DNA of 64,000 nt from Naegleria gruberi (GCA_000004985.1 GG738899.1); one strand, 5' to 3'; shown: positions 7,071-58,496, numbered from the stretch's first letter. Translations and numbers: made by a program. Notes: a model not told the origin generated them from the sequence alone.

Positions 7071-7074
7071 CTAA

Positions 7075-11850: not shown

Positions 11851-11899
11851 CAATGATATGAATCTTCACTAAGTAATCTCTTAAATAACCCAAATAAAT

Positions 11900-29010: not shown

Positions 29011-31347
29011 ATGAATCGACATGTGCTCACACCACAAACGAGGAAACCTACTCGATTCGTTTGGAAAATGAACCGCCTCTGTGCTACTCTTTCAACAAAA
29101 AAAAACATGGAGGTTTCGAATAATGTACCACCCCAACAACAAGTGGAACACAATGCAGATAGTACATTGCATCCTAAACGGTTATCTGGTACTGTGACCT
29201 TCGAGGAACCATCAACCACAGTTCCAATCACTGAGCAAGACTCCAAATCTAATATAACTTCTCAATCCATAATGAACAAATCCTTGTTTAATAGTTTCTT
29301 TCTAATAAGAATCTTGGAGAAAATACCTCTCATCATTAAATTGGCCCTCATTATTGCCTTTTGCTTGATTCCTATGGCAGTATTTGGTGCCTTACTGATC
29401 AATTCTGCTGCTGTCAACTTGAGCCATGCGAATGAGATTAAAAAACTATCAAAAGTAACAGTGCACCTCTCAGAAATTGTTAATTCTTTGCAGAATGAAA
29501 GAGGAACCACAGCTCTTTATCTAGGTTCTCACAAGAGACAGTATATTATTCAATTAGCTAAAGCAAGAAATCAAACTGACATTGCTATAGAAAGATTCTT
29601 GGCACTTTCAGTAAGCCCTAACGATATTTTGATTAATGAAAAGTGGAAGAGGACGTGGTATTTGTTTGAGGATTATTTGGGAAAGGTTACAAATTATTCG
29701 AAAGGTATTGGAGAGTGGAGAATGAAAGTGGAGGATGTTACTAACGAAACCTTTTTACCAACATTCCAAATCGTCAGTGATTGGAATTCCCTGACCAATG
29801 ATTTGATTAGAGTTATAACAAGTCAAAGCTTGGATCCAACTTTTGCAATAATTCACAATTCATTCAACTTGCTTACCTCAACTAAGGAATATCGAGGAAT
29901 TAGAAGATTTTTAGGAACTTTTGGATTTTTAAATGGAAGTTTGTCTCAAAGTTCGATTAATTCATTTAAAGAGGCTGCCATTAGAGTAAGTAATTTATTA
30001 GAAGAATATTTTGTAATAATTGAAAATTTAACTACTTTACAAAAATCTGTTAAATCGTTTTTTAGGGAAGATTGCTTAGACACTTATTTTCACTTCAAGC
30101 ATCCAACGATATTTACGAAGAATTCCATTCAAATGTTCTCAGTAATGATCAGCAAAATGTCTGTCAGAGAATGGAAGACTATGTCTTGGCAAATTATCAA
30201 AATTTAACAAAGTATACAGTTCAAGAATGGTATGATAACATGACTCTATGCATGGATTCATTTAGGAATGTGGAAGATGGAATGAGAGCTTTCTTATTAG
30301 ACTATTCGAATCAAATTGGTTCGAATGCTACCGATTCATTAATTGCATTTACCATAGTTATAGTAATGGTGGTTCTTGTGGCAGCATTAGTGGCATTACT
30401 ATTTTCGAAAACTATTCTAGGACCTTGGAAGAAAATGTTGCGTCTCCAAGAGGACATGGTTTACAAATTCGTGCCACGAGAATTCATGTCCATTATTAAT
30501 AAGGAGAAGGTTACAGATTTGCATCATGGTGATTTCTTTGAGAAGGAGTTGGACATTATGTTTGTCGATATTCGAAACTATACTTCAATGAGTGAGAGAC
30601 TACCAACTGATCAAATGTTCAAATTCTTGAATCGATATTTGGCTTTGGTTGGTCCGATTGTGAGGAGAAATTGCGGATATATTGATAAATATATGGGTAT
30701 GTTCATTCTAGAATGATTATAAACTTTATTAAGGTGATGGATTTATTGCCCTATTTACAGAGCCAGGCCATGCACTGAAAGCATCTATTGAAATTCAAAA
30801 TTGTGTTCTGGTGTTTAATGAGAGCGTGTCACCAATCATTGGTCCTATTTCAATAGGATGTGGAATTGTCAGAGGTCGATGTGCAGTTGGTTTGATAGGT
30901 GAATCAAAGAGAATGGATCCAACTATAGTTGGGGATGCCGTCAATTTATCTGCTCGATTAGAATCTCTGACGAAATATTACAATGCCAAGATTCTAGTTT
31001 CGAAAAGTGTAACCGATTCTTGTTCACCTATTTGGCTGGGAGATGGAGGGACTTGGCGATCCATTGGAAAAATATGTGTAGTGGGTAAGAGAAATTATGT
31101 AGAAATTATGGAAATTATTCCTTTTAATAATTGTAAGAAACGGTCAACTAAGGAAATGTTTGAGAAGGCCATTACACACCTATTTTGCAGAGATAAATTT
31201 GATCCCATTACTGCTGAGCAACTATTAGAACAAGTTTCTATCATTGATCCAGACGATAGGATTTGTAAAATGAGATTATTATTGGCACAGTCGTTGGTTG
31301 TGGATTGTTCACACTGGGATTTTGTTGATACTCCAAATACCAAATAA
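29011..31347 (+). CDS. Receptor-type class III nucleotidyl (adenylyl/guanylyl) cyclase with an extracytoplasmic NIT (nitrate/nitrite-sensing) domain flanked by two transmembrane helices. Three exons: 29011-29985 (or -30012), 30066-30696, 30734-31347
   Basis: TM1 IIKLALIIAFCLIPMAVFGALLI. NIT signature VHLSEIVNSLQNERGTTALYLGSHKR. TM2 LIAFTIVIVMVVLVAALVALLFS. Cyclase motifs: ELDIMFVDIRNYTSMSERLPTDQMFKFLNRYLALVGPIVRRNCGYIDKYMG|DGFIALFTEPGH...GCGIVRGRCAVGLIG...IVGDAVNLSARLES. Intron 2 (30697-30733, gtatgt...ttaag, phase 1) rebuilds the canonical KYMGDGF. Intron 1 runs either 29986-30065 (gtaagt donor) or 30013-30065 (gtaata donor); both are in frame. Confidence 0.7.
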
Positions 31348-31608
31348 TGGATCGAACATTCCAAAGTGTTTGTAATTATCATTTCAAATGAATTTCAACT
31401 ATATGACCTAAACAATATTACAAAAAAATTAGAATCTTTGAACAACATGAGTACGAAACATACTACCAATCCGATTGGAATCATGATTGATGTATGAACG
31501 AGACGTTTGACACCAAGCAATCAAAATAGAAGAGAACTCTCAAAAATGTGAATCACGTTTTGCATTACAATACATTTTTTGCACTGAACTTATTGTATCT
31601 AAAAAAAA

Positions 31609-34467
31609 ATGTGTTTCGTCCAATTCTCTATTATTTGTCTTGTTATAGGATTGTTATTGATAACAAAAACAAATACCTTAGCTAATGAGCAACCAAAGCT
31701 GACCTATGAAATGATCACTCAAATCAAGGGTTGTCCTTGTCAAGAAGAAACTGGTGGAAACCCACACCTCATTTACGATTTTGGTGGAGGTGACATGAAG
31801 AACGTAGCATACTTTTCAGGCCTAGTTTATTTCCTTGATCAATGTAACAACAAGATATACTCATATGAATCCCAAGAAAACCAACAAATCTCAAAAAGTA
31901 ATCAAGTTTATGTGAACTTGGTGGCAGGTGGCGGTGACGATTCGTATTTTAATGGCACACATGCTTGTAGAAGATTTGGATTTGCAGGTGATGGTGGGAT
32001 GGCTATCAAAGCTCTGTTTAATAGACCTGTTCATATTGCGATAGATCATTCAAATGGTGATCTGTATGTCACTGATCAGGGAAATCATGCTATCCGAAAG
32101 ATTACTTGGGATAAGACCATCAGTACTGTTGCAGGCATAGGCAGATTTGGTACAGATTCCTTTATTGATGGAGTTCCTGCTACAAAGGTCAGTTTGGATA
32201 CACCCATCAAGTGTGTGATCGTGGCAGGTGAACTGTACATTCAAGAAAATAGAGGAATTCTTAGAGTTGGTAAAGATGGTACCATTTCTATAGTTATTGA
32301 CATCAAGAAGCACTTTTACTATGCAAAGCAATTCGAATTGTTGACATTCGACATTTCCCAAGATGGATCCATTGTTTACGTTGCCATGAGCTTTGATAAT
32401 TCAGTTTTTATCAAGCAGTATCATGAAAGTAATGAAACTTGGACTCATGTAATGGGTACAGAAAATTCTGAAAGCAGTTGTCTCTCTCTTCCCAATTGGG
32501 AAGAAGGTTATTATTTGAATCCTTCCAATTATACACTCTGCCATGTTACAGATATGATATTTACAAAAGATGGAGCGATGATTCTCATAGACACTTATTC
32601 CAAAAATTATACTGAGATTACTAATTCTGATGTTCCAATGGATATTCAACCAATGTCTGCAATTCATCGTTTAGAACAAGATGGAACGCTTTCTGTATTA
32701 ATGACCTCAACTAGAGGCTATACATTCGGTGGACTGGGGGTTTATCCAAATGGAGATTCAATAATTTATACTGTCCAAGAAGAAAATGTGAAGAAAATTA
32801 TTGAAACTCATATTACTTGTAGAGAATATTTGAAACTGTCCAGTGAAAGAAGGAACTGTGTACCAGTATGTGACACCAGACCAGCTGATGATCCAAAGGT
32901 CTGTGGTGGACATGGCACTTGTCAAGATACTAATAAGTGTGTATGTAATGATGGTTTCAATCCTGAAACATTTTGTAAATCTCCAATGTGTTTTGGAGAT
33001 TTTTCAGAAACTGGAGGATGTTCTGGTCATGGCAAATGCGTTGATTATGATAAATGTTCATGCAATTATGGCTATTGGGGGGACAATTGTCAATATCCAT
33101 GGAGTTTTACAATTATCATTATTGGTTGTATCATTTTGGTTGTAGCTTTAATGTGTGAGTTCAGTACTATCTTTGGTTGTTACATTTACTTGGACAACAA
33201 GAGGAAACATAAAGTGTTGGAGGGTGAACATTCAGACATGCTGGACGACTACAAGAGTGCTCAACAAGATGTTGCCGATATGAGGGGAATAGTTAAAGTG
33301 GTAGAATTTACAAATGCCATTTCCAGTAATCAAAGGTCCACCTTCAATATTAATGGAGAAAGCTATCCATGTTCGTTTGAGGCAAGAAAAAGGTACTTAC
33401 ATATTGAACCCAATGATTTTGGTGTTAAAACTGTGCTATGCAACAATTTAAGGCCATTACTAGTTTACAGCAAAATCTGGCAATTTACAATAGAGAGAAA
33501 TGATCAGATTGCAAGTATTCGTAATGTTGCTTACTTTGTAAATAGTTTAAAATCCAAACCATCCGAGTCCAAATCATCTGAGTATGAAGCTTATCCATAC
33601 CTATTTGTGACATTGAAACACTATCCACTTAGTAACCTTTCCATAAGGACTGAAAAAAGAATTTTACAAAAACTGTTTACAAAAGAAGGAATGAGAAAGG
33701 CATGTCTTAGTATGGCAAAAGCAATAGCTCGATTCCACAATACTTTGGGCTTAATCCATTGCGATATTGCTCTCAAAAATTTCGTAATTGAAGAACTTGG
33801 AAATGGAGAATTAGTTTTCATTTTGATAGATTTTGATGCAGCAAGATTCATCAAGCCAGAAGATGCCACAAAAATGTTACAGAACAATAAGCGAGTATCA
33901 GTGGATAGTTCACAAGGAATCCAACCGCTCTCAGACAATTCCCTAGATGAATATACTATTTCACATTTAACAGGAAACGAGGATTACCAAAATACGACAC
34001 AGAGGGATCTTTATGCCTATGGGGCAACCATTGAAGAACTTTACGATATTTTCCTTTTTCAAATTACAAACATAATTAATGAACTCACTGATATGATTTC
34101 TAATTCCAAGTTTACTGAAGAAAAAGAACGTTTAACAATGGAGATTAAGGCATTTGAAGAAGTAATTCCAAATCACTCTGAAATGTTGAACTATTTCGAA
34201 AGCAATGTGAAGCCAATTGTTGCAAAATTGAAAAATCATGAGTATCAAACAGACTACAAATCAGAAATGTATCTCATTGAACTATTTTCAGATGAAACAT
34301 TTTCTCAAACTCTAAAGAATGAACAACAAGTTTCACCTTTGTCTCACAATACAGCATCAGTCATAACTCCACATCAAAATCCAACACAAACAACAACAAC
34401 TTTAAGCTCAAATCAACCAGAAGAGATTGATGATGAACAAAGTATTCTTTTGCGCAATAGAAGATAA
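31609..34467 (+). CDS. Type-I receptor: signal peptide, NHL beta-propeller repeats, EGF-like modules, TM helix, and a cytoplasmic divergent protein-kinase-like (probable pseudokinase) domain
   Basis: Signal peptide MCFVQFSIICLVIGLLLITKTNTLA. NHL units such as FNRPVHIAIDHSNGDLYVTDQGNHAIRKIT...ISTVAGIG. EGF-like CVPVCDTRPADDPKVCGGHGTCQDTNKCVCNDGF...CSGHGKCVDYDKCSCNYGYWGDNCQ. TM IIIIGCIILVVALMC. Kinase-like core LIHCDIALKNFVIEELGNGELVFILIDFDAARF; no GxGxxG/VAIK recognised. Intronless 952-aa ORF. Confidence 0.6.
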   Translation: MCFVQFSIICLVIGLLLITKTNTLANEQPKLTYEMITQIKGCPCQEETGGNPHLIYDFGGGDMKNVAYFSGLVYFLDQCNNKIYSYESQENQQISKSNQVYVNLVAGGGDDSYFNGTHACRRFGFAGDGGMAIKALFNRPVHIAIDHSNGDLYVTDQGNHAIRKITWDKTISTVAGIGRFGTDSFIDGVPATKVSLDTPIKCVIVAGELYIQENRGILRVGKDGTISIVIDIKKHFYYAKQFELLTFDISQDGSIVYVAMSFDNSVFIKQYHESNETWTHVMGTENSESSCLSLPNWEEGYYLNPSNYTLCHVTDMIFTKDGAMILIDTYSKNYTEITNSDVPMDIQPMSAIHRLEQDGTLSVLMTSTRGYTFGGLGVYPNGDSIIYTVQEENVKKIIETHITCREYLKLSSERRNCVPVCDTRPADDPKVCGGHGTCQDTNKCVCNDGFNPETFCKSPMCFGDFSETGGCSGHGKCVDYDKCSCNYGYWGDNCQYPWSFTIIIIGCIILVVALMCEFSTIFGCYIYLDNKRKHKVLEGEHSDMLDDYKSAQQDVADMRGIVKVVEFTNAISSNQRSTFNINGESYPCSFEARKRYLHIEPNDFGVKTVLCNNLRPLLVYSKIWQFTIERNDQIASIRNVAYFVNSLKSKPSESKSSEYEAYPYLFVTLKHYPLSNLSIRTEKRILQKLFTKEGMRKACLSMAKAIARFHNTLGLIHCDIALKNFVIEELGNGELVFILIDFDAARFIKPEDATKMLQNNKRVSVDSSQGIQPLSDNSLDEYTISHLTGNEDYQNTTQRDLYAYGATIEELYDIFLFQITNIINELTDMISNSKFTEEKERLTMEIKAFEEVIPNHSEMLNYFESNVKPIVAKLKNHEYQTDYKSEMYLIELFSDETFSQTLKNEQQVSPLSHNTASVITPHQNPTQTTTTLSSNQPEEIDDEQSILLRNRR

Positions 34468-34650
34468 TCAGTTATTAGTTTAAAATCGTTTGATTTCTTA
34501 CAAAATTATCTTGCATAAAATTCAATTATACAAATTGAAATTACAATATTTTGATGTTAGCACAATCTTGTTGACTAACTCAAAGAATATTCAACCTTCC
34601 TTATTGTAATCCAACTCTTCCCAATTTGTAAATATTCATTAATAAGTACG

Positions 34651-36451: not shown

Positions 36452-36813
36452 GGAGTTGTTTATAAATGGAATTTTTACTTATTCTATAACATCAACAACA
36501 AAAGTTCGCCTCTCTCTCACCTGATTGAATCTTCTCCTGGGTGTTGAGGGGAAATTTGGAGTTGTATTCAATTTTTGGGTTCCTTATTCGAGATATGAAA
36601 ATCCTTCACCACCTGCATTCTCAATTTCGATGGGAACTGATCTAATCTTGTCTCAATACGAGGAGGTAGTGACAAGACTCATTTACACTTTCAATGTTCA
36701 AGAAATTAAATTTACCAGAGAGTAGGTAAACCATAAAATTCATTAGTAAATATAACATTCAGTTCACTTTCTAATAATTAATTGGTCACCAATTCTAACT
36801 TAGTAAAATAAAA

Positions 36814-36886
36814 AGCCCTAGAGATGTTTCGATCATCTGACCTCAACCTTATGAGGGTTATGCTCTCCCACTGAGCTACGAGGGCT
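36814..36886 (-). tRNA. tRNA-Met (anticodon CAU) gene with an initiator-like T-loop (AUCGAAA: A54, A60), followed by a T5 Pol III terminator
   Basis: Reverse complement: GCCCTCG-TA-GCTC-AGTGGGA-GAGC-A-TAACC-CTCATAA-GGTTG-AGGTC-AGATG-ATCGAAA-CATCT-CTAGGGC-T, then TTTTT. D, anticodon and T stems are fully paired. The acceptor has a G1:C72 pair and one C6:U67 mismatch. Confidence 0.75.
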
Positions 36887-37366: not shown

Positions 37367-38461
37367 ATGAAATCACTATTGCTACTTTTCACACTCTTGG
37401 CAACTGCAATTCTCATTGCTGGCCACAAAGTCACAGAAAAGACAATCATCAGCTCTGAAAAGATAGGTTACGGTGTGTTGAAGGGTCCAGAATCTATTGT
37501 GTGGGATCCAGTCCATGCTGATGTATTATATACTGGTATTAATGATGGTAGTATCATGAGAGTAAATGTCACGTCAGGTGTCAGTACTGTTTACGCTTAT
37601 TCTGTCCCAGCTTTGAATGCCACACAAAGAGCTGTCTGTGGTACAAGCGTGTTATATGAAGGTACCTGTGGTAGAGTTTTGGGAATGGTATTTGATAAGA
37701 ATAACAATTTAATTGTCGCTGATGCTTACAAGGGATTGTTGAGAATTTCCAGAGCTAATCCAAGTCAAGTTGAAGTTTTGGTCAATTCATACAATGGAGT
37801 CCCATTCAAGATGACAAACTCAGTTGTCTTGTTGAAGGATGGTAAGACTGTCTATTTCACTGATTCTTCCCTTCTCTATTCAAGACTTTACTTTGTGTCC
37901 ATCGTTGTGGCCAACAATCCAGATGGAAGATTATTCAAATTCGATTTGGAAACCAAGCAATTGCAAGTTGTCATTTCTGATTTGAAATTTGCCAATGGTA
38001 TTGCTGTTTCCAAAGATGAATCCTTCCTCGTTATCAATGAATGTTCATCTGGCTCATTAAGAAGATTCTACTTAAAGGGAAGAAAGGCCGGAACTAATGA
38101 TGTTTTCGTTCAAGATATTGGTGGATATGCTGATAATATCAAGACTGATGATGATGGCAATTTCCTAGTTGGTTTATTCTCAAATACCACTCAAGAAGTT
38201 ACTGCCATTCATGATTCTGCCAAGTTGAAGAATATTTTCCTGACCATTGTGCCAGCAACTACCACTTTGGGAATGATTGTTCCACAAGGATTGGTTAAGA
38301 AGGTCAATCAAAAGGGAAAGATTACAACTGTTTATTCTGATAAGACTGCTACTTTTGCTTTGCAAGTTTCTGAAGCTGATGTCAGAGGTGGATATTTGTA
38401 TTTGTGTTCAGTTTTGAACCCTTGGTTGACCAGAGTTAACTTGTCAACTGGTTTGCAATAA
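37367..38461 (+). CDS. Secreted strictosidine-synthase-like / APMAP-type six-bladed beta-propeller protein
   Basis: Signal peptide MKSLLLLFTLLATAILIAG. GPESIVWDP...LYTGINDGSIMRV...GRVLGMVFDKNNNLIVADAYKGLLRI...DGRLFKFDLETKQLQVVISDLKFANGIAVSKDESFLVINE...RRFYLKGRKAG matches the Str_synth family consensus. Confidence 0.65.
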   Translation: MKSLLLLFTLLATAILIAGHKVTEKTIISSEKIGYGVLKGPESIVWDPVHADVLYTGINDGSIMRVNVTSGVSTVYAYSVPALNATQRAVCGTSVLYEGTCGRVLGMVFDKNNNLIVADAYKGLLRISRANPSQVEVLVNSYNGVPFKMTNSVVLLKDGKTVYFTDSSLLYSRLYFVSIVVANNPDGRLFKFDLETKQLQVVISDLKFANGIAVSKDESFLVINECSSGSLRRFYLKGRKAGTNDVFVQDIGGYADNIKTDDDGNFLVGLFSNTTQEVTAIHDSAKLKNIFLTIVPATTTLGMIVPQGLVKKVNQKGKITTVYSDKTATFALQVSEADVRGGYLYLCSVLNPWLTRVNLSTGLQ

Positions 38462-43609: not shown

Positions 43610-44344
43610 TTAATTACTCTTAATAATTCCATCAATCATTGAAATCCAATCAGCAGCAGTGAAATCATATCCATTGAAAACATTAACACCATTAACAAAG
43701 AAGAATGGAGTTCCATACAATCCTCTTGAAGTAGCATAACCAAACATTGAAGCAGCTTGAGCAAATGATGATTGACTATTCATTTCACTCAAATATTGTT
43801 CATAACTAATCAATCCCAATGGTTGAACATAGGTAGCATAGATCAAGTTGAAAATTTGAGCTTGATTCATATTCTTCAAATTAGCATTTGAAGCAGGTGA
43901 TTGATTACTAAAGAATAAATCCAAAAACTTCCAACAAACATTTCTATCAGCCTTTGAAAACTTGGAAACAATCGAATAGGTTTGAGCAGAATAAAATCCA
44001 GCAATATGCATTGGCAATGGCATCAAATGAAGACTAAAAACAACCTTATCTTGATTTCCAGAAGTTCCATTATTAAAATAATATTGAACAAGAGGCTTGG
44101 TAATACTTTGGAAATGTGTAGCACAATCAGGACAAGTCAAATCCAAGAACATTTCAAATTCAACAAGTGTATTCGGAGAGGAATTTCCAATAGTCCATGA
44201 ATTTTTCAAATTACTAATTCTTGGTCCGACTGGTGTAATGGCGAGTGATGATTGAGTAGAAAGGAATAAAATCATCATTACCATCATCACGATGGAAGCA
44301 AAAAGAGCGCGTGATGAGCGGGTGCTGCTGAGATGTTGAGACAT
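43610..44344 (-). CDS. Secreted DsbA-like thioredoxin-fold thiol:disulfide oxidoreductase (bacterial-type)
   Basis: Signal/anchor segment ALFASIVMMVMMILFLSTQSSLA. CxxC active site in FEMFLDLTCPDCATHFQS. DsbA C-terminal cis-Pro region GLYGTPFFFVNGVNV. Intronless. Confidence 0.55.
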   Translation of the reverse strand: MSQHLSSTRSSRALFASIVMMVMMILFLSTQSSLAITPVGPRISNLKNSWTIGNSSPNTLVEFEMFLDLTCPDCATHFQSITKPLVQYYFNNGTSGNQDKVVFSLHLMPLPMHIAGFYSAQTYSIVSKFSKADRNVCWKFLDLFFSNQSPASNANLKNMNQAQIFNLIYATYVQPLGLISYEQYLSEMNSQSSFAQAASMFGYATSRGLYGTPFFFVNGVNVFNGYDFTAADWISMIDGIIKSN

Positions 44345-44799: not shown

Positions 44800-45475
44800 A
44801 TGCAAACTAAATCTTCCCTCCTCGTTTTATATTTCACACTAGTTGCAACTGTTTTGTGTGTTTTGACTTGTTCGGCTCAAGCTTCTATCAACTTGAACGT
44901 TCCAATGAAAACTCAAACTTTTCAGTCAACTTTCAAGTATCCTAGCGCTCAAGCTGCTTATCAAGTTTTGAAGACAACTGAAGTTATGTTCAGTTTGCAA
45001 CCTTATGTGTAGGTATTTGTTGTTAAATTGTTGTTTTTCTTATCAATTTATTCCGTAAATTAACAATTATTAATTTGACATTTTGACATTTAACAGATAT
45101 TATGTTCAAATTATTTCTCAAACTGATACCTCTCGTGAATTAGATTTTGCTGAGAAAATCCCAGTCTTCTTTGGTGTTTTCAATTATGATACTGGTAAAT
45201 TGAGAGCTGTCCAAGCTTTTGACAATTCTCAAAGATCCATCGTGTCAAATGTCCCATTCCCAGGTGGTTTAGGAACTTTGGTTGCTAATCTTTCATTCAC
45301 TGAATCTGCAGATGTCGACGAAAATGGCTTAAAGACAATTACTTGTAATGAAATTGTCAATGGTCAAGTTTTCTTGCTTGCTAAATTATTTGTTGAAGAT
45401 AGTGTTAAGAGTGCTCATACTCAATTGGTTGCTGATATTGCAAATTATTTCACTACTCATCCAGCTAGTGCTTAA
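44800..45475 (+). CDS. Small secreted protein of unknown function. Two exons, intron 45009-45096 (gtaggt...taacag)
   Basis: Signal peptide MQTKSSLLVLYFTLVATVLCVLTCSAQA. Exon 2 continues the frame (…LQPYV|YYVQIISQTD…). No motif recognised. Confidence 0.45.
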
Positions 45476-48700: not shown

Positions 48701-50141
48701 GTAAAGTCTTGGTTCCTGCCATTCCATCAATGTCCGATAAAAACCCCGCTAATCCGGAATCTGCCCCAACCACTATTTTCAAAGTTTTGGTAGAAATGTC
48801 CAATTTCAATACTCGATTTGCATAACTTTCACTCATATAAATATTTCCCTCCAAATCTACAGCAATTCCTCTACATGCTGTCAATAGTTGAGTTTCGGCC
48901 ATGTAGACGAAACCTTGTCCTAAAGATTGAATTCTTTCAGTATTTGGGGAGAAACCAGCAAAGTTGTGCACATAGTTTTGTTCAATCACTCTAATTTTTT
49001 GATTATTTTTTTCTAAAAAGTAAACATTTCCATCAGACGAAACTTCAATACTTGTTGGATTGTAAAGAAAAAATTCAGTATCAAAGTGTTGCATTCCATT
49101 TCCTGCAATTGTTGTGATAGAACCATCTGTTGTTATCTTTCTAATACGATTATTTGCAGAATCTGCAAAGTAAACTTCATTATTCGAAACTCTAATGGCC
49201 TGTGGATAGTTTAGTTTAGTTTCAGTAGCACGTTTTCCATCTACATCAAACCCACATCCATTGTATCCTGCAATTGTTTCCATTTGTCCATTAAAAACTC
49301 TTCTCAATTTGCAATTGAACGTGTCAGCAATATAAATTTCACCTGTAGTATTCGAAACATGGACAGAATGTGGATAATTCAACATGGATAATGTTGCCAC
49401 ACCATCCGAATAACCAGCAGTTCCATTTCCAGCAATTGTCGTAATATTATTCGTAACAAACGAAAGCTTTCGAATAATATGATTTTCTTCTTCAACAAAA
49501 TACAATTCTCCACCATTTCTCTCAACTACAAATAAACCTCTTGGATTTTTCAAATTTGTTACCAATGCATTTCCATCTCCATTCCAAGAATCAACAAAAG
49601 TTCCAGCAACAATTGTTACCTTACTCAACAGATCGGAAGTAAAATTAAAAATTTGCTTTCCAGTCGAAACATAGATCGTATCCAGGGAGCTGCCACTCAT
49701 TCGTATTGAAGTAATTGCACGGTAGTCATTTCCGTTTCTTGTTGAAATGACAGTTTGACTAGTGACATTTATGGCGGTCAATTGGGAATCGTGAAGAACA
49801 TAAAGTGTGTCAATGCCATTGAAGGACATGTCAAGGGGTTGATAGAGTTTCAAGTTTCTGGCATGTTGGGATTGTCCAATAAATTTGGAGAGTTTATATT
49901 CGAGGGGAAGATTTTGGCCTTGTGTAAAAATTGGCAGCAATAATAAAAATGTCAAAGTCACTACACAAAATATCAGATAATTTGGCAAGTGACAGATGGC
50001 GTGTAACATGCTGAATTTTTTTTTGTTGGTTTGGAGTGTGACTCCGCCCTTTCCAGACTGAAATCTTTCAAAGGTTCCAACAAGACACTTCAATCTCTTT
50101 AAGCTTCTAAAAAGAGAAATTAATCGAATTTGTAATTTCAC
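45757..50141 (-). CDS. Large receptor Ser/Thr kinase: signal peptide, ~18 NHL repeats, EGF-like Cys module, TM helix, and a complete protein kinase domain. Multi-exon; the 47586-47760 junction is unresolved
   Basis: Upstream ORF 47757..50141 begins with a signal peptide (MLHAICHLPNYLIFCVVTLTFLLLLPIFTQG). It carries many NHL units (e.g. YIADTFNCKLRRV, YFADSANNRIRKIT, YISDSNNHRVIRY, YISDTGNRRIRIV) and stops mid-repeat (…ADYGNHRTIQ*). ORF 46026..47585 continues with NHL units, CNCTLNYSGNEC, TM LIATLVPILSVFLLIVIIVILIIILIF, and kinase motifs GSGGFGSV, ALKAIK, HRDVKESN, DFGLARD, GTPMFL|SPE across a 44-bp intron at 46039-46082 (gtaagttt...ttcacag), then DVYSLGV. The frame of the downstream part has no ATG for ~150 codons, so it must be spliced to upstream sequence. 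Confidence 0.6.
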
Positions 50142-50162
50142 AAAAAATTCAAAAAAAATGAA

Positions 50163-52274
50163 ATGATCGTTGGTGGCGCCTTAAAAGGTCTCGGAATGAT
50201 TTTTCCCGCCAATTTGGAGCATATCGTAAATGAGGAGAATGAAGAGGAATTTATTTTGATTCGGAAGGGATTTGATAATAGAAAACAAGTTGCTTTAATT
50301 TCTGGTTAGTAACATATTCATTTGTTGGATTTGGATATATAAATTGGTGATACTATTTAATTTTATTATTTGATGATTTGATGAATTTAATTTGATTTTA
50401 ATATTATTGATGGTGATGAACAAATATGAAAAGGAGGAGGATCTGGACATTCACCATCACATGAAGGATTTGTTGCAAAAGGAATGCTCACAGCTGCTGT
50501 TTTGGGAGCTGTTTTTACTTCTCCGAGTGTTTTGCAAATCTTCAAGGCAATCACTGCTGTTACAAGCAGGAGACGAGTTGATGAAGAAGGAAAGGGATGC
50601 TTGTTGATTGTGAAGAATTATACAGGAGATATATTGAATTTTAGATTGGCTAGAGAAATGGCCATTCAAGATGGATATAATGTGGAGATGATTATTGTGG
50701 GAGATGGTATGTTGTTTGAATATATATGTGAAGATTGTAAAGTTTTTGAATGATTAGATGTTACTCATCAGAGAGGAGTTGCTGGAACTGTTTTTATTCA
50801 TAAATTGTGTGGAGCTATGGCTGAGAGAGGTGATTCATTGAGTGAGATTTTTGAGTTTATGAAATCAAAATTAAAAATCACATCGGAACAAGTATTGAAT
50901 AATGGAAATGAATCATTTATTAGGAGTATTGGAATTGGATTGAATAGTATTTCAATGCCAGGTAATTCGGAACCACTCTATGAATTGAGTGACAGCGATC
51001 CTGTCTATGAGCTCGGCTTGGGAATTCATGGAGAGAAGGGCGTTTGCAGACTTACATTTTCTCCAACTAATCCAGTCACTGAAATTTCCAACACAATGAT
51101 TGAACATTTATTACCAAAGGAATTCAGTGCCGAGAATCTCAAATTTGCTCTCATGATTAATAATTTAGGATCTACCACCTTGTTGGAAATGTACAATATT
51201 GCAAGGGTGGTAATTACCTTATTGGAAAATCAAAACATTTCTATTGAGAGAGTGTATGTTGGAACATTCATGACTGCTCTGAATATGCATGGATTCTCTC
51301 TCAGCTTGCTTAATTTAGCTCAAAACTCTGAACAATTATTAGAACTCTTGGACACTCCAACAGAGTCAATGTTTTGGCCAACTAGTTTGAATCTCTCCAA
51401 AAAATCAAACAATTCTTCGAGAACTAGTCACTCAACTGGAGGTATTAAACTGTCCCCTCAAATAGGAATAACAGCCACAACAAAATCCATCATATCTACT
51501 GAGGAAAATTCACAAGTAGAAAAATTCCTCTCACTCACAGGGGTCGTTTGTGATTTTATCTTGACAAGAATTAAAGAATATAATTCTTTGGACAGTGAAG
51601 TTGGAGATGGGGATTGCGGGAGTGCCATTGAAAGGTATGTACAAAATATCACATTATGTAATTATATAATTTATAACTATTTTATATATTTGGAATATTT
51701 TAGAGCTTGTGAATCAATTCAACAACACATCCTCAAAAAACAAGATTTGAAAATGACACTTGCCGAATTGGTTTATCAAATTGGAATTTGTGTTCAAAAT
51801 AGTGGAGGTAGTTCAGGAGCTATTATTTCCATGTTCTTTTTAAGATATTCCAAATCATTGAAAACGAATTCATTCGATCACAAGAAGGCATTCATTGAGG
51901 GAGTGCACGGAATGATGGAATTGGGTGATTCAAAGAAGGGAGACAGAACAATGCTCGATACTCTCATTCCAGTCAGTGAATATTTACAGGAACAAGAAGA
52001 ATCTATCGATGTGGAAACCATTGTTAAAGTTGCAAATGAAGGAATGGATAGTACAAAATCAATGCTTGCCAAAAGGGGTAGATCTCGTTATCTTGGAGAC
52101 AGAGTTTTAGGATTCTTAGATCCTGGTGCACTTTGCATGTTTGATATTGTCAAAATTTGGTCATTGTGGATGTTAGATAAATCACGGGTGGCTAACTCTA
52201 GCGATTTTTTTCGTGAAGTCTCCGACCCACGAGTTTTTTTTGCCACAGTAAATATTACAAGTTGTACTATTTGA
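50163..52274 (+). CDS. Dihydroxyacetone kinase / triokinase (DhaK + DhaL domains), 4 exons. The last 30 codons and the stop codon are supplied by the inserted transposon
   Basis: Exons: 50163-50304, 50434-50706, 50758-51634, 51704-52274. Introns: gttagt...aag, gtatgt...ttag, gtatgt...ttttag. DhaK motifs: KQVALIS|[32 protein letters not shown]...[37 protein letters not shown]|[25 protein letters not shown]. DhaL motifs: [16 protein letters not shown]|ACES...[12 protein letters not shown]...GDRTMLDTL...[21 protein letters not shown]. The native end ...WMLDK is immediately followed, in the uninterrupted flank, by TGA at 57008. Confidence 0.75.
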
Positions 52275-55200
52275 ACCAATATACAATCAATAAATGTTTT
52301 GAAAATGTAAATAATCATATTTAAAGACTAGACTCTATCGTTTACCTGTTGACGAAAAATCTTGGGGTTTTATCAACCCCTAATAAAGAATTTGATGTGT
52401 GCAACAATCATAAAAATAAATATAACCATAAAAGGTATTGAAAAATGACTAACCGAGCTCAAAATCAAATATAACGAGTTTTATTCGAAATACTAATACA
52501 AAAATTGGTAAGTACCTTTCTTCTTACTTCAATAACGAAATGTAAAATTTTGAATTAAATATCTTGAGAGTTGATGATTTGAGAAGGTTGCGGTTCAATT
52601 TCAATTTCCTCAAATAAGCAATTATTGCACCATCTTTCAAATTTAACACATGAATCACAAATAAGAGATCCACAATCATGACATCTACGTACTGACTGAG
52701 TTCTGAAGTGACATGATTCACAGACAAATTGAGGGAAATGAGTGGAACAATTTTTACAAACTCCTTGAAATTCACATAAATTACAAATCTCCACTCCACA
52801 TTGATTACACTCATCAAGTGATTTTGTGTATCCTAAACAAATGTGGCATGGATAAATTGGATAGAAAAGTTCTGTAAAACAATCTATGCAATATAATTGA
52901 TGCCAACATGAATCACAAAACAACCTGAAACAATCACCACACTTATTAATTCCTCTCTCATGTCTACAATAGTTGCAACCTTGTTGTTCACAAATATCTG
53001 GATCACATTTACAAGTATTTGGAAAGCAATATCGTTCATTCTTCTTACAGGAGCATTTAAGGTTTGAGCAACTGGTTGTACAACGGCATCCTGTTACCTT
53101 AGTAAGCTTGGATTCTGAATTTGATTTCTTTCTTTTTTTCTCAATATTTGAGGTTTTAGAGAATTCTTGAATATTCGAAATGGCTGTGTTAACATCATCA
53201 AAAAATTTGTTTAAAATATTAAATAATCCAATTACATCAAAGAATGCACAATGACAATCCGCAACATTTCCCACTTGGAAATGTTCAATTAACATTTCTT
53301 CTTTGAATGCAGTTCTTCCACTACTCTCTTTTTTTGGTAATTTGTGATGTAGATCTTTGTGGCTTTTCATTAATTTCAAGGAATCTACGAAAACTATATT
53401 TTCAAACTTTGATTCTCTTTTCGGATAAAACTCTTTCTTAAATACTTTGAAATCAAGTATCTCACCATTGTGCGCAATTAAGAAAGTTTTCCCTTTAGTA
53501 TTACTAATAAAATCAATAATAAAATCAAGCTCCTTTTCAATGATTGGTTTGTCTCTTACATAATTCAAATTGATTCCAGTAATCTTTGTTGAATGATATG
53601 AAATTGATTTTGTTGGATTTACTAATCCATAAATTGATTCACCTGTTGCCATATTTAAAAAGCAATATTCTGTTATTTTTGGTGGATCATCATTTGTCCA
53701 AAATCCTGTTGTTTCAAAATCAAACAGAATATATTTGTCATCTCCAAAATCATGTTGAAATGGAAGACCCTTATTGTGTGTGTACAAATCATCATTGAAT
53801 AAAATTCTGGAAGCTCGTGGGATTGGTTCTGAAGGTCTAATTTTTTGATCTACTATTGATTTATCAACAGTATTTGTAATAAGTGTTAATAAATTATCAC
53901 TGTCCAATAGGTTGGAAGAATCTGACTGTTTGATTGATTTCAATAAAGCTTCAATCATTGACTGCTTTCCCTCTGAAAATGAATAATTATGAACGTTCAT
54001 TACATGTTTCAAAAATGATTTCAATCTCACAAAAGGTTGATTACATTCTTTACAAAGAATGTAAATATTATTCATGATGTTTTTTGAGTCAATGTTCGGT
54101 GGATTTTTACACATGAATTCTCGTATGAGCATAGTGTTTCTTTGAGGTTCAAATCCTTCTACAGCATCCAATATATAATCGAACATTTCAGTAAAACTAT
54201 TTTCTTTCTCTAATATTTGATCTTCTTCTTCCTCTGTAAGTTTTTTCTTATTCTTCTTCTTATACTTCTTTCTAGTTAATTCCTCATACTCCAATTCCAA
54301 ATCTATTTTTCCATAACAATTCGAATAACTCTCATTTCTCAAAACAAATGGTCCGTCACTTAGTTTTGCTTTTAACACTAACCAAACAGATCTATAACAG
54401 GAACAATAATCCATAAATGTTGGATATCTAATTTTGGATCTAACAATGCTGAAACAATGTTCTACCATTAATGTAGATAAGCTACAAGTACATAGCTCAA
54501 TTGTTGGAAATCTTGTCTTAAGCTCCTTTAAGGATTTTAATGTAATTATAATATGATCAAATAATTCATTATTTAAAGAAATATCGTTTGATTTTTGCCA
54601 TGGATTAATAAATTGAAAAACAGAGTCTAACAGAATCTCTTTTGCTTCCCAACAATAATCATTTTTGAAAATATAATAAATATCCTGCATTAGTTTTAAA
54701 TATTTAGAGACTGTTTGACAAGTAGTATTTTTTGATTTGGCCAAACCATCAATTAAATTAGTTTCTAATAATGCAAATACGGGATCCATAGCCATTTTGT
54801 CAGTAGGATAAATCACAGAATTAGGTAGCCAATCAGTTAAATTTGATTCAGATTTGGCAATCAATAACGTCTCAATTGAAAATGAAATGCCATCTATAGT
54901 CATGGTTTCATTTAGTAATCTATTTCGTAATCGTTTTAGTAGATGAGAGTAATCAAAGAAGTGAACAGTATTGGGAAATATTTTTTGTGTTTGGAAAAAT
55001 GTTAAATTTCCAGTCAATCCATCGCTACTGAAACCTACAACTTGGAAAGAATAATTATTTAACTGAATTCTTTCAAACTGTTCCTTAATCTTTTTTACTT
55101 GATCTTCCAAAAAATCTGCATGACTTGATTTTGTACAACCTGCAAACATTAAAGGGAAAGAAACACTTCCATCAATTGTAGTAGCAAAGAATTGGCAAAT

Positions 55201-56999
55201 GTGAGAAGCAATTTGGGAAGGTACAATTTCTTCTTTAGATTTGTATAGCTGATCAAAATCTTTTTCATTATAATCTGCAAATCCTATAACTTTTCCAGAA
55301 TCTTTAAGAACACATAACCCTCCTCTTATTTCTATTTCATCATATGAAATTATTATATTATTCGTAACTTTCTTTTTCTGTATAGATTTCAATAAAGATT
55401 GCAAATCTAAATCAGAGGTTTGCCCTGTAGATAATTTGGGAAGATAAGATTTCACTGTTGCTAGAGATGGAAGTAATAAATTCACTTCATCAAGGGCTGT
55501 TTGAGAATTCAAAGCTGAGCCATTTCCTTTCAATATTTTCCATATTTTTGATCCACCAAAATATCTTAAAATTAGACACCAATGAATAATAGATTCCTTA
55601 TACTGATATCCTCTTGACTTATTATAATTAGTGATATTTTCCAAAGTATTTTCCATTAATTGGTAGAAAAATTGTTGTTCATGCAGTTTTTCATCTTCAA
55701 TAGCAGCAATCACCAATTTTACAAGTTTGTGATGATGAATTTTGGATAGTTTTTCCTCTAATGAATCCAATTTTTCTTCCCGTCTTGTTAACATAGATTT
55801 TAATTGAGATACTTTCTTTCTTAATTTCTCTATTTGATCTTTTTGTTTGATTAATTTTTCGTCAGAGTTGTTTGATTTAGTGGTTGTCATATGTCGCAAT
55901 TTTTCATATAATTGATAACAATCTGTGCAAACTCCATTCCGATTTAAATTAATATTTCCACATTTCAATGATTTGAAAATGAAATTTCCATTATCATTAA
56001 ATGATACAATTCCTACTTCATTGTTTCGTTTGTCACAAACTTTTCCATCATAATTTAATAAATTCCATACTTTTTCCACAGCAACTCCTTTACATGTAGT
56101 ATTATTATTTTTACAGTTAGCACATGATCGTGTATCAGCATGTTTACATTTCCCCATGCCTTCTTTAATTTCCGAAAATCCTTTTTCTGAATTATATTCA
56201 ACTTTGATCGTTTCATCATTTGCCAATTTTTCAACAAATCTTATTAGCTTCTGATAATGACTGTGACATAAACGTGACGTTTTTTTGTTGATTATTATAT
56301 TATCAGGAACATTTCTTGTGCCAGGCTGTTTACAACAACAACAACTTGTACGTTGTTTTCTTCATGACATTTTTTTGTTTTTTACTCAAAAAAATGTCAT
56401 GAAGACCCAACACAGCCGGAGTTCTTTACCTAGGATGTTCAAGCCAAGTATTATTCTCAAGAAACTAGAACCAATTCATAAATTAAATATTTAATTAGAT
56501 TACTAGTAATAACCCGCCAGGTTCATACAATGAATAAACATTTAAATTTTTTTATTTTTTAACGGAATTAATTTGCTTTGATGAAAATATAATGGAGACT
56601 GTTGGTATGTTTCATGCAAAGTTCCACGTTGGTCAAATAATTATTAACATCAACAAGTAGTAGAAAACAGTAGGTTTTAAATTATTGGATTAGTTTTTTG
56701 ACCAACGTGGAACTTTACATGAACGAGGGCACACTTTGAAGATTATTTTTCTGTGGCTTTATGTTATTCTTGTAATATATCTACAGACTCGGAAAGTTGC
56801 CAAGCAATAAATAAACAATACTAGTACTCATATGTTCAAAAGAATGACAAAGATCAACTTTAGATGTATTATAAATCGATTTAAAAGTTGAAAATTATTT
56901 ATTGATGAGCAACAACAAATTCCAATTTTATTTAAAAACTCGTGGGACACAAATGCTCGATTGCCTGAGCCAAAAATGACCCATAGTTAGCCACCCGTG
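52183..56999 (-). mobile_element. Intact autonomous DNA transposon (P-element-superfamily-like), 4817 bp. Has a 15-bp perfect terminal inverted repeat, ~70-bp imperfect subterminal IRs, and an 8-bp target-site duplication AGATAAAT
   Basis: Left end 52183 reads CACGGGTGGCTAACTctagcgattttttt...CCCACGAGTTTTTTTT. Right end 56999 is the reverse complement: ...AAAAACTCGTGGGacacaaatgctcg...AGTTAGCCACCCGTG. Flanking direct repeats agataaat sit at 52175-52182 and 57000-57007. The ORF track shows a single ORF on the minus strand, 52555-56226. Confidence 0.8.
52555..56226 (-). CDS. Transposase, 1223 aa, intronless. N-terminal Cys/His zinc-binding region, coiled coil, P-element/THAP9-like transposase core, DEDDh 3'-5' exonuclease domain, and C-terminal CXC (tesmin/TSO1-like) plus B-box-like Cys-rich modules
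   Basis: P/THAP9-like core motifs: IISYDEIEIRGGLCV, VVGFSSDGLTGNLTFF, FFDYSHLLKRLRNRLLN. Exonuclease: Exo I YILFDFETTGF...KITEY, Exo II FLIAHNGEILDFKVF, Exo III YHSTKITGI...HFQVGNVADCHCAFFDV (H-x-A-x-x-D). CXC domain: CRCTTSCSNLKCSCKKNERYCFPNTCKC, followed by multiple CxxC...CxxC units (CHICLGY...CNQCGVEICNLCEF...CKNCSTHF). Confidence 0.65.
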   Translation of the reverse strand: MANDETIKVEYNSEKGFSEIKEGMGKCKHADTRSCANCKNNNTTCKGVAVEKVWNLLNYDGKVCDKRNNEVGIVSFNDNGNFIFKSLKCGNINLNRNGVCTDCYQLYEKLRHMTTTKSNNSDEKLIKQKDQIEKLRKKVSQLKSMLTRREEKLDSLEEKLSKIHHHKLVKLVIAAIEDEKLHEQQFFYQLMENTLENITNYNKSRGYQYKESIIHWCLILRYFGGSKIWKILKGNGSALNSQTALDEVNLLLPSLATVKSYLPKLSTGQTSDLDLQSLLKSIQKKKVTNNIIISYDEIEIRGGLCVLKDSGKVIGFADYNEKDFDQLYKSKEEIVPSQIASHICQFFATTIDGSVSFPLMFAGCTKSSHADFLEDQVKKIKEQFERIQLNNYSFQVVGFSSDGLTGNLTFFQTQKIFPNTVHFFDYSHLLKRLRNRLLNETMTIDGISFSIETLLIAKSESNLTDWLPNSVIYPTDKMAMDPVFALLETNLIDGLAKSKNTTCQTVSKYLKLMQDIYYIFKNDYCWEAKEILLDSVFQFINPWQKSNDISLNNELFDHIIITLKSLKELKTRFPTIELCTCSLSTLMVEHCFSIVRSKIRYPTFMDYCSCYRSVWLVLKAKLSDGPFVLRNESYSNCYGKIDLELEYEELTRKKYKKKNKKKLTEEEEDQILEKENSFTEMFDYILDAVEGFEPQRNTMLIREFMCKNPPNIDSKNIMNNIYILCKECNQPFVRLKSFLKHVMNVHNYSFSEGKQSMIEALLKSIKQSDSSNLLDSDNLLTLITNTVDKSIVDQKIRPSEPIPRASRILFNDDLYTHNKGLPFQHDFGDDKYILFDFETTGFWTNDDPPKITEYCFLNMATGESIYGLVNPTKSISYHSTKITGINLNYVRDKPIIEKELDFIIDFISNTKGKTFLIAHNGEILDFKVFKKEFYPKRESKFENIVFVDSLKLMKSHKDLHHKLPKKESSGRTAFKEEMLIEHFQVGNVADCHCAFFDVIGLFNILNKFFDDVNTAISNIQEFSKTSNIEKKRKKSNSESKLTKVTGCRCTTSCSNLKCSCKKNERYCFPNTCKCDPDICEQQGCNYCRHERGINKCGDCFRLFCDSCWHQLYCIDCFTELFYPIYPCHICLGYTKSLDECNQCGVEICNLCEFQGVCKNCSTHFPQFVCESCHFRTQSVRRCHDCGSLICDSCVKFERWCNNCLFEEIEIEPQPSQIINSQDI

Positions 57000-57194
57000 A
57001 GATAAATGATTGAGTTTTGTGAAACAGCTCATCAACGGAAATTGGTTGTATCCAATTAATTTTCAAAAAAGAAATCCATTATCTTACTGTAATCAATTAT
57101 TACAATCTAAAATTGATTACAAGTAGCATCTGATACCAACACCATTATAACCAAACTGTTGAAACTTGACGAAACTTTTTCATCTTTAAAAAAA

Positions 57195-58496
57195 ATGAAA
57201 AGATTCATTGGTGGTTTATTTCTCGTACTAATCTTTGCCACTGTTGCCATGTGTGCCAGCAGTGATGCATTCGACACCTTGAGTGATTACATCTCTCTCG
57301 CAGACTCCCTCAGAGGAGGTGGTTCTTCAGGAGGTGGAGGTGGCAGAGGAGGTGGATCCGGTGGTGGTGGCAGAGGAGGAGGTAGCTCTGGAAGTAGAGG
57401 AGGATCCAGCAGAGGAGGAAGTAGCTCTGGAAGATCAAGCACTGGAGGTAGATCAAGTACTGGTGGTAGATCAAGAAGTACTGGAGGAAGAGTTTCTGGA
57501 CCTGGTCGTTCACCAACTGGACCTTCTAGATCAATTGGTGCAACTAAAGGTGGAAGAGTTGGAGGAAGAGTTGGTGGAAGAGTTTCTGGACCAGGTAGAT
57601 CACCAACTGGACCTGCCAGATCAAGAGTTGGAAGAGTTTCTGGACCAGGACGTGCTCCAACATCTGTTTCCATTCAAAGAAATGCCATTCAAAGTAGAAT
57701 TAATGCTGCATTTGCTGGATTGAGTAAGGTTTCTACCAATCCTGCCTTGTCAGCTGCTCTTTCTAGATATGCCTCAATGAAAGCTGCTTCCTTGAAAGCT
57801 CCTTCAGTAACTAGTGCATTATTCTCCAAGACTCCATTGGGTCCAGTGAGTACTTTCTCAAAGGTCAACCCATCCTTGCCAACCAACAAGTTCACTAAAC
57901 CTGCAACTGTTGCCAATGTTCCTATTCCACAACCTCGTCCTGCCAATTTGGCCAAACCAGCAACTCAAACTGTTGCTGCTACTACCAGTGTCAAGAATCC
58001 AATTAATCCTGCTGGTGTCCAAAGAGTTGCTCGTAGTAAGCAACTTACTGGACCACAAGTAGCTCAAAAAGCAATTAAGGAATTAGCTGCTGCTGGTGTT
58101 ACTTTATCAGCCGATCCAAAACAAAGAATTGCTCAAATTGCTGACCAAATGGCCAACCCAGGATCATTACACAAATGTGCTGGTTATGTTGCTGCTGCTG
58201 TTGAAGCTGCTACAGGAGTCTCTCTCAGCAGACCTGCCTCAGCTGAAGCTAAGGATTACGGAACTACCATGGCCAAGGCTGGAATGAAGTCAATTCCAAA
58301 TAATAGCACTCCACAAATTGGTGATGTCAGAGTGATTGGACCATCTCCAACCAATGCCAAGTACAGTATTGGTCATATGGAGACCTATACTGGACCAAAG
58401 AGTGGATGGGTTTCTGATTATGCTCAAGGAGTATCTGCTGTTGATAATCCAAAGAGTGCTTATCATGGAGCTTCTGTTTCTACCTATCGTTTCTAA
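57195..58496 (+). CDS. Secreted protein: signal peptide, Gly/Ser/Arg-rich repetitive linker, and a C-terminal CHAP-like (Cys/His amidase-peptidase, NlpC/P60-type) domain
   Basis: Signal peptide MKRFIGGLFLVLIFATVAMCASS. Low-complexity GGGSSGGGGGRGGGSGGGGRGGG...GRVSGPGRSPTGPSRS repeats, with an ~100-bp tandem DNA duplication at ~57480-57660. C-terminal domain HKCAGYVAAAVEAATGVSL...AKDYGTTMAKAGMKSIPNNSTPQIGDVRVIG...YSIGHMETYTG has Cys...His spacing and surrounding hydrophobics consistent with the CHAP fold. Confidence 0.45.
   Translation: MKRFIGGLFLVLIFATVAMCASSDAFDTLSDYISLADSLRGGGSSGGGGGRGGGSGGGGRGGGSSGSRGGSSRGGSSSGRSSTGGRSSTGGRSRSTGGRVSGPGRSPTGPSRSIGATKGGRVGGRVGGRVSGPGRSPTGPARSRVGRVSGPGRAPTSVSIQRNAIQSRINAAFAGLSKVSTNPALSAALSRYASMKAASLKAPSVTSALFSKTPLGPVSTFSKVNPSLPTNKFTKPATVANVPIPQPRPANLAKPATQTVAATTSVKNPINPAGVQRVARSKQLTGPQVAQKAIKELAAAGVTLSADPKQRIAQIADQMANPGSLHKCAGYVAAAVEAATGVSLSRPASAEAKDYGTTMAKAGMKSIPNNSTPQIGDVRVIGPSPTNAKYSIGHMETYTGPKSGWVSDYAQGVSAVDNPKSAYHGASVSTYRF

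Follow-up and report, generated by a model that had tools for sequence, protein, structure and literature searches.

The stretch of DNA described here, a window of 64,000 nucleotides, is the telomeric end of a 331,038-bp scaffold (GG738899.1) of Naegleria gruberi NEG-M, a protist (an amoeboflagellate) of the Heterolobosea that is free-living and feeds on bacteria. Between positions 29,011 and 58,496 it contains five genes that a sequence-only reading had singled out as belonging to types rarely encoded by eukaryotes: a cyclase with a NIT sensor domain, two NHL receptor kinases, a secreted DsbA-like protein and a secreted protein called CHAP-like. Since these genes lie among ordinary eukaryotic ones, next to a DNA transposon and not far from a telomere, it had been proposed that bacterial genes accumulate in this block, as is known for the subtelomeres of some invertebrates. 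Pfam and phmmer matches together with open reading frame (ORF) models confirmed that all five genes are present.

The gene described as CHAP-like (57195-58496, plus strand) is intronless and encodes a predicted secreted protein of 433 residues, which phmmer, AlphaFold2 (AF2) modelling with Foldseek and a family alignment assign to the Tae3 family of peptidoglycan amidases (dae3-like). Its signal peptide (residues 1-23) is followed by a short acidic segment, a Gly/Ser/Arg low-complexity region with a net charge of +21, an Ala/Ser/Pro/Lys linker (+16) and, finally, the amidase domain with the catalytic Cys and His (residues about 301-433, window positions about 58095-58493). Searching the PDB by phmmer with the C-terminal 148 residues returned a single match, the Tae3 protein of Ralstonia pickettii (4hz9_A, E=1.3e-10), in which query residues 31-147 are aligned with residues 11-117 and the catalytic Cys (KCAGYV in Naegleria, RCAEYV in Tae3) and His (GHME and GHMA, respectively) coincide. 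The AF2 model, built from six sequences, reached a predicted local distance difference test score (pLDDT) of 91.6, and the top three Foldseek matches in the PDB were all Tae3 chains (TM-score 0.77-0.87, root-mean-square deviation (rmsd) 1.9-2.3 A, 35-36% identity). The best of them was 4hzb_A (TM-score 0.79/0.87, rmsd 1.9 A, 36% identity). The next match after the three Tae3 chains was a generic NlpC/P60 domain with a TM-score of 0.57; NlpC/P60 and Tae1/Tse1 structures were much weaker. The model thus has the papain-like fold of the NlpC/P60-CHAP superfamily with the topology of Tae3, and in an alignment of 30 family members, the Naegleria protein among them, C53, H119 and D133 do not vary. 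The protein is specifically a Tae3-family amidase; the earlier designation as CHAP-like is borne out by the sub-threshold CHAP similarity of some of its relatives.

A HMMER search of 1.84 billion representatives yielded 271 relatives of the amidase domain at E<1e-3 and none at E<1e-30. Most of them are unnamed metagenome proteins, and those that could be named or typed are bacterial: a protein of Fundidesulfovibrio (WP_459934847), PAAR fusions (P0129, P0142), RHS-repeat toxins (P0152, P0192) and fusions with M23/SLT lysins (P0146, P0149). The degenerate motif GHMx[MI]Y[DN]Gxx W[VI]SD[FY]xQ was matched in the genomes of 83 bacterial species, including members of Ralstonia, Paraburkholderia, Enterobacter, Erwinia, Pantoea, Pseudomonas, Mesorhizobium, Massilia, Acidobacteria, Myxococcota and Planctomycetota, and the amidase domain is 33-48% identical to these 83 bacterial loci (tblastn). 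No relative above about 50% identity was found, and the searches returned no plasmid or phage relative. A word-index search of a public protein collection of 5.8 billion clusters gave no match to the amidase domain, and the same collection holds no exact entry for the 433-residue product, so that the protein set deposited for N. gruberi may lack the domain. In another family member, P0147 (L088, Logan SRR29268116 contig, gene 1748-2515), a signal peptide and a linker rich in Gln and Ser are present. Its contig (4267 bp, GC content 0.27) is compact, with genes for a Tag glycosylase and a Band_7 protein adjoining, and its source is possibly an AT-rich bacterium, which might be an endosymbiont, or another eukaryote.

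The closest relative of the Naegleria amidase, P0124, is 46% identical by phmmer (50% over the domain) and is encoded on a 990-bp contig of a Joint Genome Institute (JGI) metagenome. This contig reads in frame from its start through a signal peptide, a short acidic segment and about 115 residues of Arg-Pro-Thr repeats into the amidase, and its codons are strongly biased in a Naegleria-like manner (AGA 96% and CCA 91% of their families, GC content at third codon positions (GC3) 0.19). On account of signal peptide, layout and codon bias, P0124 is a eukaryote-like orthologue of the same architecture; two metagenome scans for further members of the Naegleria/P0124 subfamily returned nothing. The low-complexity module, about 120 residues long, lacks acidic residues in both proteins and is periodic in Arg; its composition differs, being rich in Gly, Ser and Arg in Naegleria and in Pro, Thr and Arg in P0124, while its net charge is alike (+21 and +22, respectively). 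In a neighbour-joining tree of 85 amidase domains the Naegleria sequence was placed, without support, together with P0124 and two other sequences, one of which (P0205) has a signal peptide.

With Tae3 of R. pickettii (PDB 4HZ9/4HZB) the Naegleria protein shares the fold and the conserved, aligned catalytic Cys and His. It differs from the bacterial Tae3 proteins in about 280 residues of N-terminal polycationic low-complexity sequence, whereas the bacterial relatives are either stand-alone or fused to PAAR or RHS, and in a C-terminal segment (QGVSxVxNPKSAY) common only to the one environmental eukaryote-like ORF. A bacterial effector locus of the type VI secretion system (T6SS), that is, a tae locus proper, was considered as well; the neighbours of the gene are a eukaryotic transposon and an ArfGAP-BTB gene. 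Because there is no tai, T6SS, PAAR or VgrG context and a eukaryotic signal peptide is found instead, the gene is of the dae rather than the tae type. It lies on a eukaryotic chromosome, between genes exactly matching N. gruberi entries on one scaffold, and has host-like features, among them a GC3 of 0.22 and a codon adaptation index (CAI) of 0.73, both within the host range, and the strongly biased codon pattern of Naegleria (AGA 84%, CCA 66%, ACT/ACC, GCT, GTT and AAG). In residing in a eukaryotic genome with a signal peptide and with neither T6SS nor immunity gene, it resembles the domesticated amidase effectors (dae). A text search of the literature for links between Naegleria and dae genes gave no match; the founding dae paper of Chou et al. 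from 2015 (Nature 518:98), of which L. Fritz-Laylin is a co-author, reportedly lists N. gruberi among the carriers of dae3. Genes of the tae type have entered eukaryotes several times and have kept their peptidoglycan-degrading activity, and domesticated amidase effectors without a delivery machine have been described in eukaryotes (PMC8713801; Hayes et al. preprint). Judging from sequence and modelled structure, the amidase is the only demonstrably bacterial-derived gene among the five and represents a genuine acquisition by a eukaryote from a bacterium. It also appears to be old and fully domesticated, the evidence from sister genera covering the NIT-cyclase and the DsbA-like protein only.

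These observations suggest how the protein might act. A bacterial T6SS toxin domain of the Tae3 type has been domesticated and provided with an extended polycationic low-complexity region behind a eukaryotic signal peptide. The product would be secreted co-translationally by means of the signal peptide and delivered to the medium or to the phagosome, where the papain-like Cys-His site would hydrolyse the peptide stems or cross-links of bacterial peptidoglycan, and this cleavage might help to kill or digest prey or hostile bacteria. As a rather speculative extension, which we consider unlikely although worth naming, the charge-conserved polycationic module could have arisen in eukaryotes as a substitute for T6SS injection: it would bind or permeabilise anionic bacterial envelopes and in this way give the amidase access to the peptidoglycan of prey cells that are still intact.

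The cyclase gene (29107-31347, plus strand) encodes, according to Pfam and a splice model, a class III adenylyl/guanylyl cyclase of 707 residues in which the NIT domain is flanked by two transmembrane helices; a cleaved signal peptide is absent. Its three exons (29107-29985, 30066-30696 and 30734-31347) are separated by two GT-AG introns of 80 and 37 nt, and their splicing recreates the class III cyclase motif YIDKYMGDGFIALF (KYMGDGFIALF, with the core GDGF). The 37-nt intron (30697-30733) and a 44-nt intron of the second NHL kinase (46039-46082) have GTATGT or GTAAGT donors, and both are needed for conserved catalytic motifs to be restored, GDGF in the cyclase and GTPxFxSPE in the kinase. The NIT domain was recognized by Pfam with E=1.3e-18 (68.7 bits, cutoff 24.9), and exon 3 alone matched Guanylate_cyc with 22.2 bits (cutoff 21.9). 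Sensor and class III catalytic domain are thus combined in a single polypeptide, and the orthologues have both Pfam domains too. The public protein collection holds no identical entry for the spliced product, and the gene may be unannotated or modelled differently in the public set. Its closest match is a paralogue of N. gruberi itself, P0004 (XP_002670467), which is 80% identical and lies on a different 260-kb scaffold; a partial match of 96% identity (P0006) is found in an assembly contig of the ENA. Relatives are present in N. lovaniensis (45% identity, 94% coverage), N. fowleri (40%, 99%) and Willaertia magna (38%, 96%), and the family must therefore predate the split between Naegleria and Willaertia.

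In N. lovaniensis and N. fowleri these relatives are arranged as a tandem pair, syntenic between the two species and located about 300 kb inside contigs of 813 kb and 757 kb, respectively, flanked by Cactin, OGFOD2-like, GH39 and HAD genes, and the surroundings are unlike those in the window. For Naegleria, a repertoire of at least 81 cyclases and 265 kinases has been reported (PMC9928731). The gene described here resembles the receptor-type class III cyclases of that repertoire in its order of transmembrane helix, sensor domain, transmembrane helix and class III catalytic domain and in the conservation of its family in N. fowleri, N. lovaniensis and Willaertia; it differs in being subtelomeric and non-syntenic with the tandem pair. 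Outside Heterolobosea the matches cover the catalytic third only, with 30-38% identity, and belong to HAMP- or CHASE2-cyclases, one of which (P0016) lies in a plainly bacterial, operon-like gene context. By sequence comparison, the catalytic domain is of a prokaryote-like class III type.

The DsbA-like protein (43610-44344, minus strand) is a predicted secreted thiol-disulfide oxidoreductase of 244 residues, encoded by an intronless gene and identical to N. gruberi XP_002672251 (NAEGRDRAFT_72650; 100% identity). Pfam assigns it to Thioredoxin_4 (PF13462, E=4.9e-10, 40.3 bits, cutoff 23.2), a DsbA-like family that is mainly prokaryotic. It has an N-terminal hydrophobic signal peptide, a CPDC motif and a GTP loop of the cis-Pro type, and neither CPDC nor GTP varies between the Naegleria and Willaertia proteins. 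In the collection of 5.8 billion clusters, two paralogues of Willaertia magna were the only relatives that share words with it; they are 68-70% identical by BLASTP and 74% in a MAFFT alignment and imply that this family, too, predates the Naegleria-Willaertia split. Both paralogues lie on one 109-kb contig, and one of them, P0002, was found mid-contig with Mnd1 and MOSC genes adjoining. The same word search found no close bacterial relative, no relative on viral contigs, plasmids or phages was met in the searches, and sequence and profile searches of the PDB were empty; the AF2 model, built from three sequences only, had a pLDDT of 46.

The two NHL genes code for receptor-like proteins of a different kind. 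The first (31609-34467, plus strand) is a single ORF of 952 residues for which Pfam and motif inspection indicate a signal peptide, an NHL propeller, two EGF-like modules, a transmembrane helix and a kinase-like domain that is degenerate, its motifs reading HCD and DFD; its product has no exact entry in the public protein collection. The second (45757-50009, minus strand; Pfam NHL E=7e-30, Pkinase E=5.5e-35) has a signal peptide, more than 700 residues of NHL repeats, an EGF-like module, a transmembrane helix and a complete eukaryotic Pkinase domain, in which removal of the 44-nt intron restores GTPMFL/SPE (slash, splice junction). Its two large ORFs, 47757-50141 and 46026-47585, are in one frame and are separated by 171 nt (47586-47756) with three stop codons. 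A canonical intron across this interruption was rejected, since none of the GT-AG pairs across it has a consensus donor. An alternative frame of the same segment reads like NHL repeats (...GSVVVVDS...). The sequence suggests two compensating frameshifts, due to a sequencing error or to an incipient pseudogene, rather than an intron. With a mutual identity of only 25-34%, the two genes are not the result of a recent local duplication.

The description of these two genes as bacterial-type sensor kinases did not hold. They share with PknD of Mycobacterium tuberculosis an NHL beta-propeller and a Ser/Thr kinase across one transmembrane helix, and the PknD sensor domain was indeed matched (E=1.7e-9). 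The NHL part, however, matched teneurin-like proteins (E=3e-39), SOQ1 of plants (4e-28) and NHLRC2 of animals (4e-18) far better among PDB entries. The bacterial arrangement of an N-terminal cytoplasmic kinase, a transmembrane helix and a C-terminal NHL domain was considered for both genes; in both, the order is reversed, with signal peptide and extracellular propeller at the N-terminus, EGF-like modules that PknD lacks, and the kinase at the C-terminus. Given the EGF modules, the type-I topology and the eukaryotic kinase domain, the two proteins are best described as predicted receptor assemblies in eukaryotic style, which would work like a sensor kinase although they stand outside the bacterial PknD family.

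The transposon next to these genes is real and intact. It is a P-element-like DNA transposon of 4.8 kb (52183-56999, minus strand), bounded by perfect terminal inverted repeats (TIRs) of 14 bp, CACGGGTGGCTAAC at 52183-52196 and GTTAGCCACCCGTG at 56986-56999, and by a perfect 8-bp target-site duplication (TSD), AGATAAAT, at 52175-52182 and 57000-57007. The transposase is encoded by a single complete ORF of 1223 codons (52555-56226, minus strand) with an RNase-H domain of the TNP/P-element/THAP9-like type (residues about 277-412), a DEDDh 3'-5' exonuclease domain (residues 833-1004, PADLOC DEDDh E=6.7e-17) and a long Cys-rich C-terminus. The 8-bp TSD, the short TIRs and the TNP-like RNase-H domain are those of P-element/THAP9-like transposons, from which the element differs by the added DEDDh exonuclease and Cys-rich C-terminal repeats; such a fusion of RNase-H and DEDDh domains is unusual for a P-like element. 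The insertion took place exactly on the TGA stop codon of a dihydroxyacetone kinase (DAK) gene with Dak1/Dak2 domain matches, the 3' part of which extends over 50805-52184 (plus strand). The stop codon was split (the reading before insertion was ...TTA GAT AAA TGA), and the DAK ORF is now 31 codons longer, running into the TIR up to a stop at 52274. With its TSD still perfect and its ORF intact, the element seems to have inserted recently and may be polymorphic; nothing else in the block is evidently recent.

Among the other genes of the block are a lone tRNA-Met gene with the anticodon CAT (36813-36886, minus strand), located between an RGS-like gene and a gene for a secreted strictosidine-synthase-like/SGL beta-propeller protein (37367-38461, plus strand; exact match XP_002672182), a half transporter of the ABCG type (39022-41331, plus strand), which is an ordinary eukaryotic neighbour and whose product, as read here, has no exact entry in the public protein collection, and a gene in two ORF pieces for a small secreted protein with an N-terminal signal peptide (44800-45475, plus strand). 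Other exact N. gruberi matches in the window are an ArfGAP protein (XP_002672188) and an enoyl-CoA hydratase (XP_002672249). Genes of a housekeeping type (RGS, BAR-SH3, DAK, ArfGAP and the tRNA) are mixed in, and eight of the approximately 14 genes of the block encode membrane or secreted proteins.

Towards the chromosome end, the sequence is gene-dense with a GC content of about 33-36% only from 16.4 kb on. The scaffold begins with a telomeric array of 61 copies of CCCAAA (1-370), and a second CCCAAA array (3518-3896) follows beyond a gap (N run 827-3517). Three N runs in all, together with the duplicated telomere array, lie in the first 8 kb; with the arrays split by the 2.7-kb N run, two telomeric contigs may have been joined in scaffolding to give the outermost 3.5 kb. 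Short interstitial CCCAAA tracts occur at 520-553 and 9747-9771. With these arrays, the position near a telomere was confirmed, the block lying about 25-58 kb from the chromosome end. The region from 3897 to 16400 is a non-coding subtelomere with tandem units of about 310 bp and 455 bp and segmental duplicates of about 3.7 kb (84-94% identity). Outside the N gaps it contains no ORF of at least 100 residues, and no transposase or reverse transcriptase domain or ORF was found there, so that the subtelomere, which had been called rich in transposable elements, is repeat-rich but not demonstrably TE-rich.

What had been claimed for the five genes as a group can be followed only in part. That they belong to types rarely found in eukaryotes is true insofar as some of their domains are of prokaryotic type and the amidase, by its Tae3 match, is bacterial-derived, but it fails for the NHL kinases with their eukaryotic style. 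Eukaryotic features had been ascribed to all five, and introns in two genes as well as signal peptides are indeed present, whereas the genes for NHL kinase 1, the DsbA-like protein and the amidase are intronless. Concerning phylogenetic placement, two of the genes fall within heterolobosean clades and two are eukaryote-style assemblies, which leaves the amidase as bacterial-derived. The comparison of codon usage revealed no anomaly, all five candidates being inside the range of their neighbours both for GC3 (0.22-0.32 versus 0.22-0.35) and for CAI (0.64-0.79 versus 0.64-0.80). Synteny, the remaining line of comparison, was not shared: the relatives of the NIT-cyclase occupy internal loci in N. 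fowleri and N. lovaniensis and those of the DsbA-like protein in Willaertia. The supposed local enrichment comes down to five of about 12 protein-coding genes, chosen post hoc in one window, and an excess over chance is not established. Nor is the region another case of the invertebrate type, as the host is the protist N. gruberi and not an asexual invertebrate.

Could the block nevertheless be a hotspot in which bacterial genes were preferentially captured or retained at this chromosome end, as in bdelloid rotifers and possibly with the aid of the transposon? Its distance of 25-58 kb from the telomere, the intact and recently inserted element 200 bp from the amidase gene, the one gene that is certainly bacterial-derived and the two further genes with mainly prokaryote-type domains are what such a reading can draw on, and the proximity of telomere, repeats and transposon to at least one bacterial-derived gene is indeed reminiscent of bdelloid subtelomeres. 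The Naegleria candidates, however, appear old and ameliorated and are present in sister genera at internal loci, the organism is of a different kind, and the density of foreign genes is not comparable to that at bdelloid chromosome ends. Islands of the bdelloid type are marked by recent acquisitions, whereas here the NIT-cyclase and the DsbA-like protein have sister-genus relatives and close donors are lacking; they are also marked by deviating composition or missing introns, whereas here GC3 and CAI are in the host range and two of the five genes have spliceosomal introns. Since the families of the NIT-cyclase and the DsbA-like protein, which have relatives in three other heterolobosean species at internal, non-syntenic positions, predate the split of Naegleria and Willaertia, their presence here is not due to delivery into this subtelomere. 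Outside Heterolobosea, the relatives of all candidates stay at or below about 50% identity, and the searches turned up neither a close nor a recent donor; both NHL kinases are assembled in eukaryotic fashion, and the candidates are interspersed among ordinary genes. A subtelomeric foreign-gene hotspot is therefore not supported, and we regard it as improbable. Slightly less probable still is a neighbourhood for bacterivory or defence, in which amidase, disulfide oxidoreductase and receptors would be co-located through co-regulation for the sensing and killing of bacteria: the eight membrane or secreted proteins among about 14 genes and the strongly optimised codons of the amidase gene, which suggest high expression, would fit, but no pair of the genes is syntenic in N. 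fowleri, N. lovaniensis or Willaertia, and the genes lie on both strands with unrelated ones between them. That the scaffold was misassembled, or that contaminating bacterial sequence was joined to it, is hardly conceivable. The N gaps and the duplicated telomere array of the first 8 kb might raise the suspicion, yet all candidates are situated in gap-free sequence between exact-match N. gruberi genes, have the GC3 and codon usage of the host and show spliceosomal introns or else signal peptides of eukaryotic type and low-complexity regions.

Chromosome ends are often enriched in environment-facing membrane and secreted proteins. The block is probably an ordinary subtelomere-proximal region of N. 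gruberi, composed of environment-facing genes, old heterolobosean families, one domesticated T6SS amidase and the recently inserted P-element-like transposon, and its prokaryote-like flavour comes from the old heterolobosean families and not from a local accumulation of foreign genes. Several points weigh against this conclusion. Outside Heterolobosea, the catalytic domain of the cyclase has its best matches in bacteria, and three of the five genes may ultimately go back to ancient transfers, which is more than would be expected for a random dozen genes. A single window of 64 kb is compatible with a genome-wide subtelomeric bias of acquired genes. The comparison with sister species, from which the age of the gene families was deduced, covers the NIT-cyclase and the DsbA-like protein only, and in the tree of amidase domains Naegleria and the environmental ORF appear as sisters in only 14 of 100 bootstraps. 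For the amidase, finally, it is the fold and the catalytic residues that were established by sequence and modelling, its activity and secretion being predictions.

The gene families, the large sensory repertoire of Naegleria and the existence of dae genes in eukaryotes are already documented. If the hotspot were real, Naegleria would join the bdelloid rotifers as an organism in which chromosome ends serve as entry ports for bacterial genes; the evidence points the opposite way. The region may rather serve as a worked example that bacterial-type domains near a telomere are not evidence of local horizontal gene transfer in a protist with large sensory families. The recently inserted P-like transposon indicates ongoing transposition in N. 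gruberi. Our work also provides a well-characterised model of a dae3-like gene, whose conserved polycationic module is a candidate for the delivery of the amidase to bacterial cell walls.

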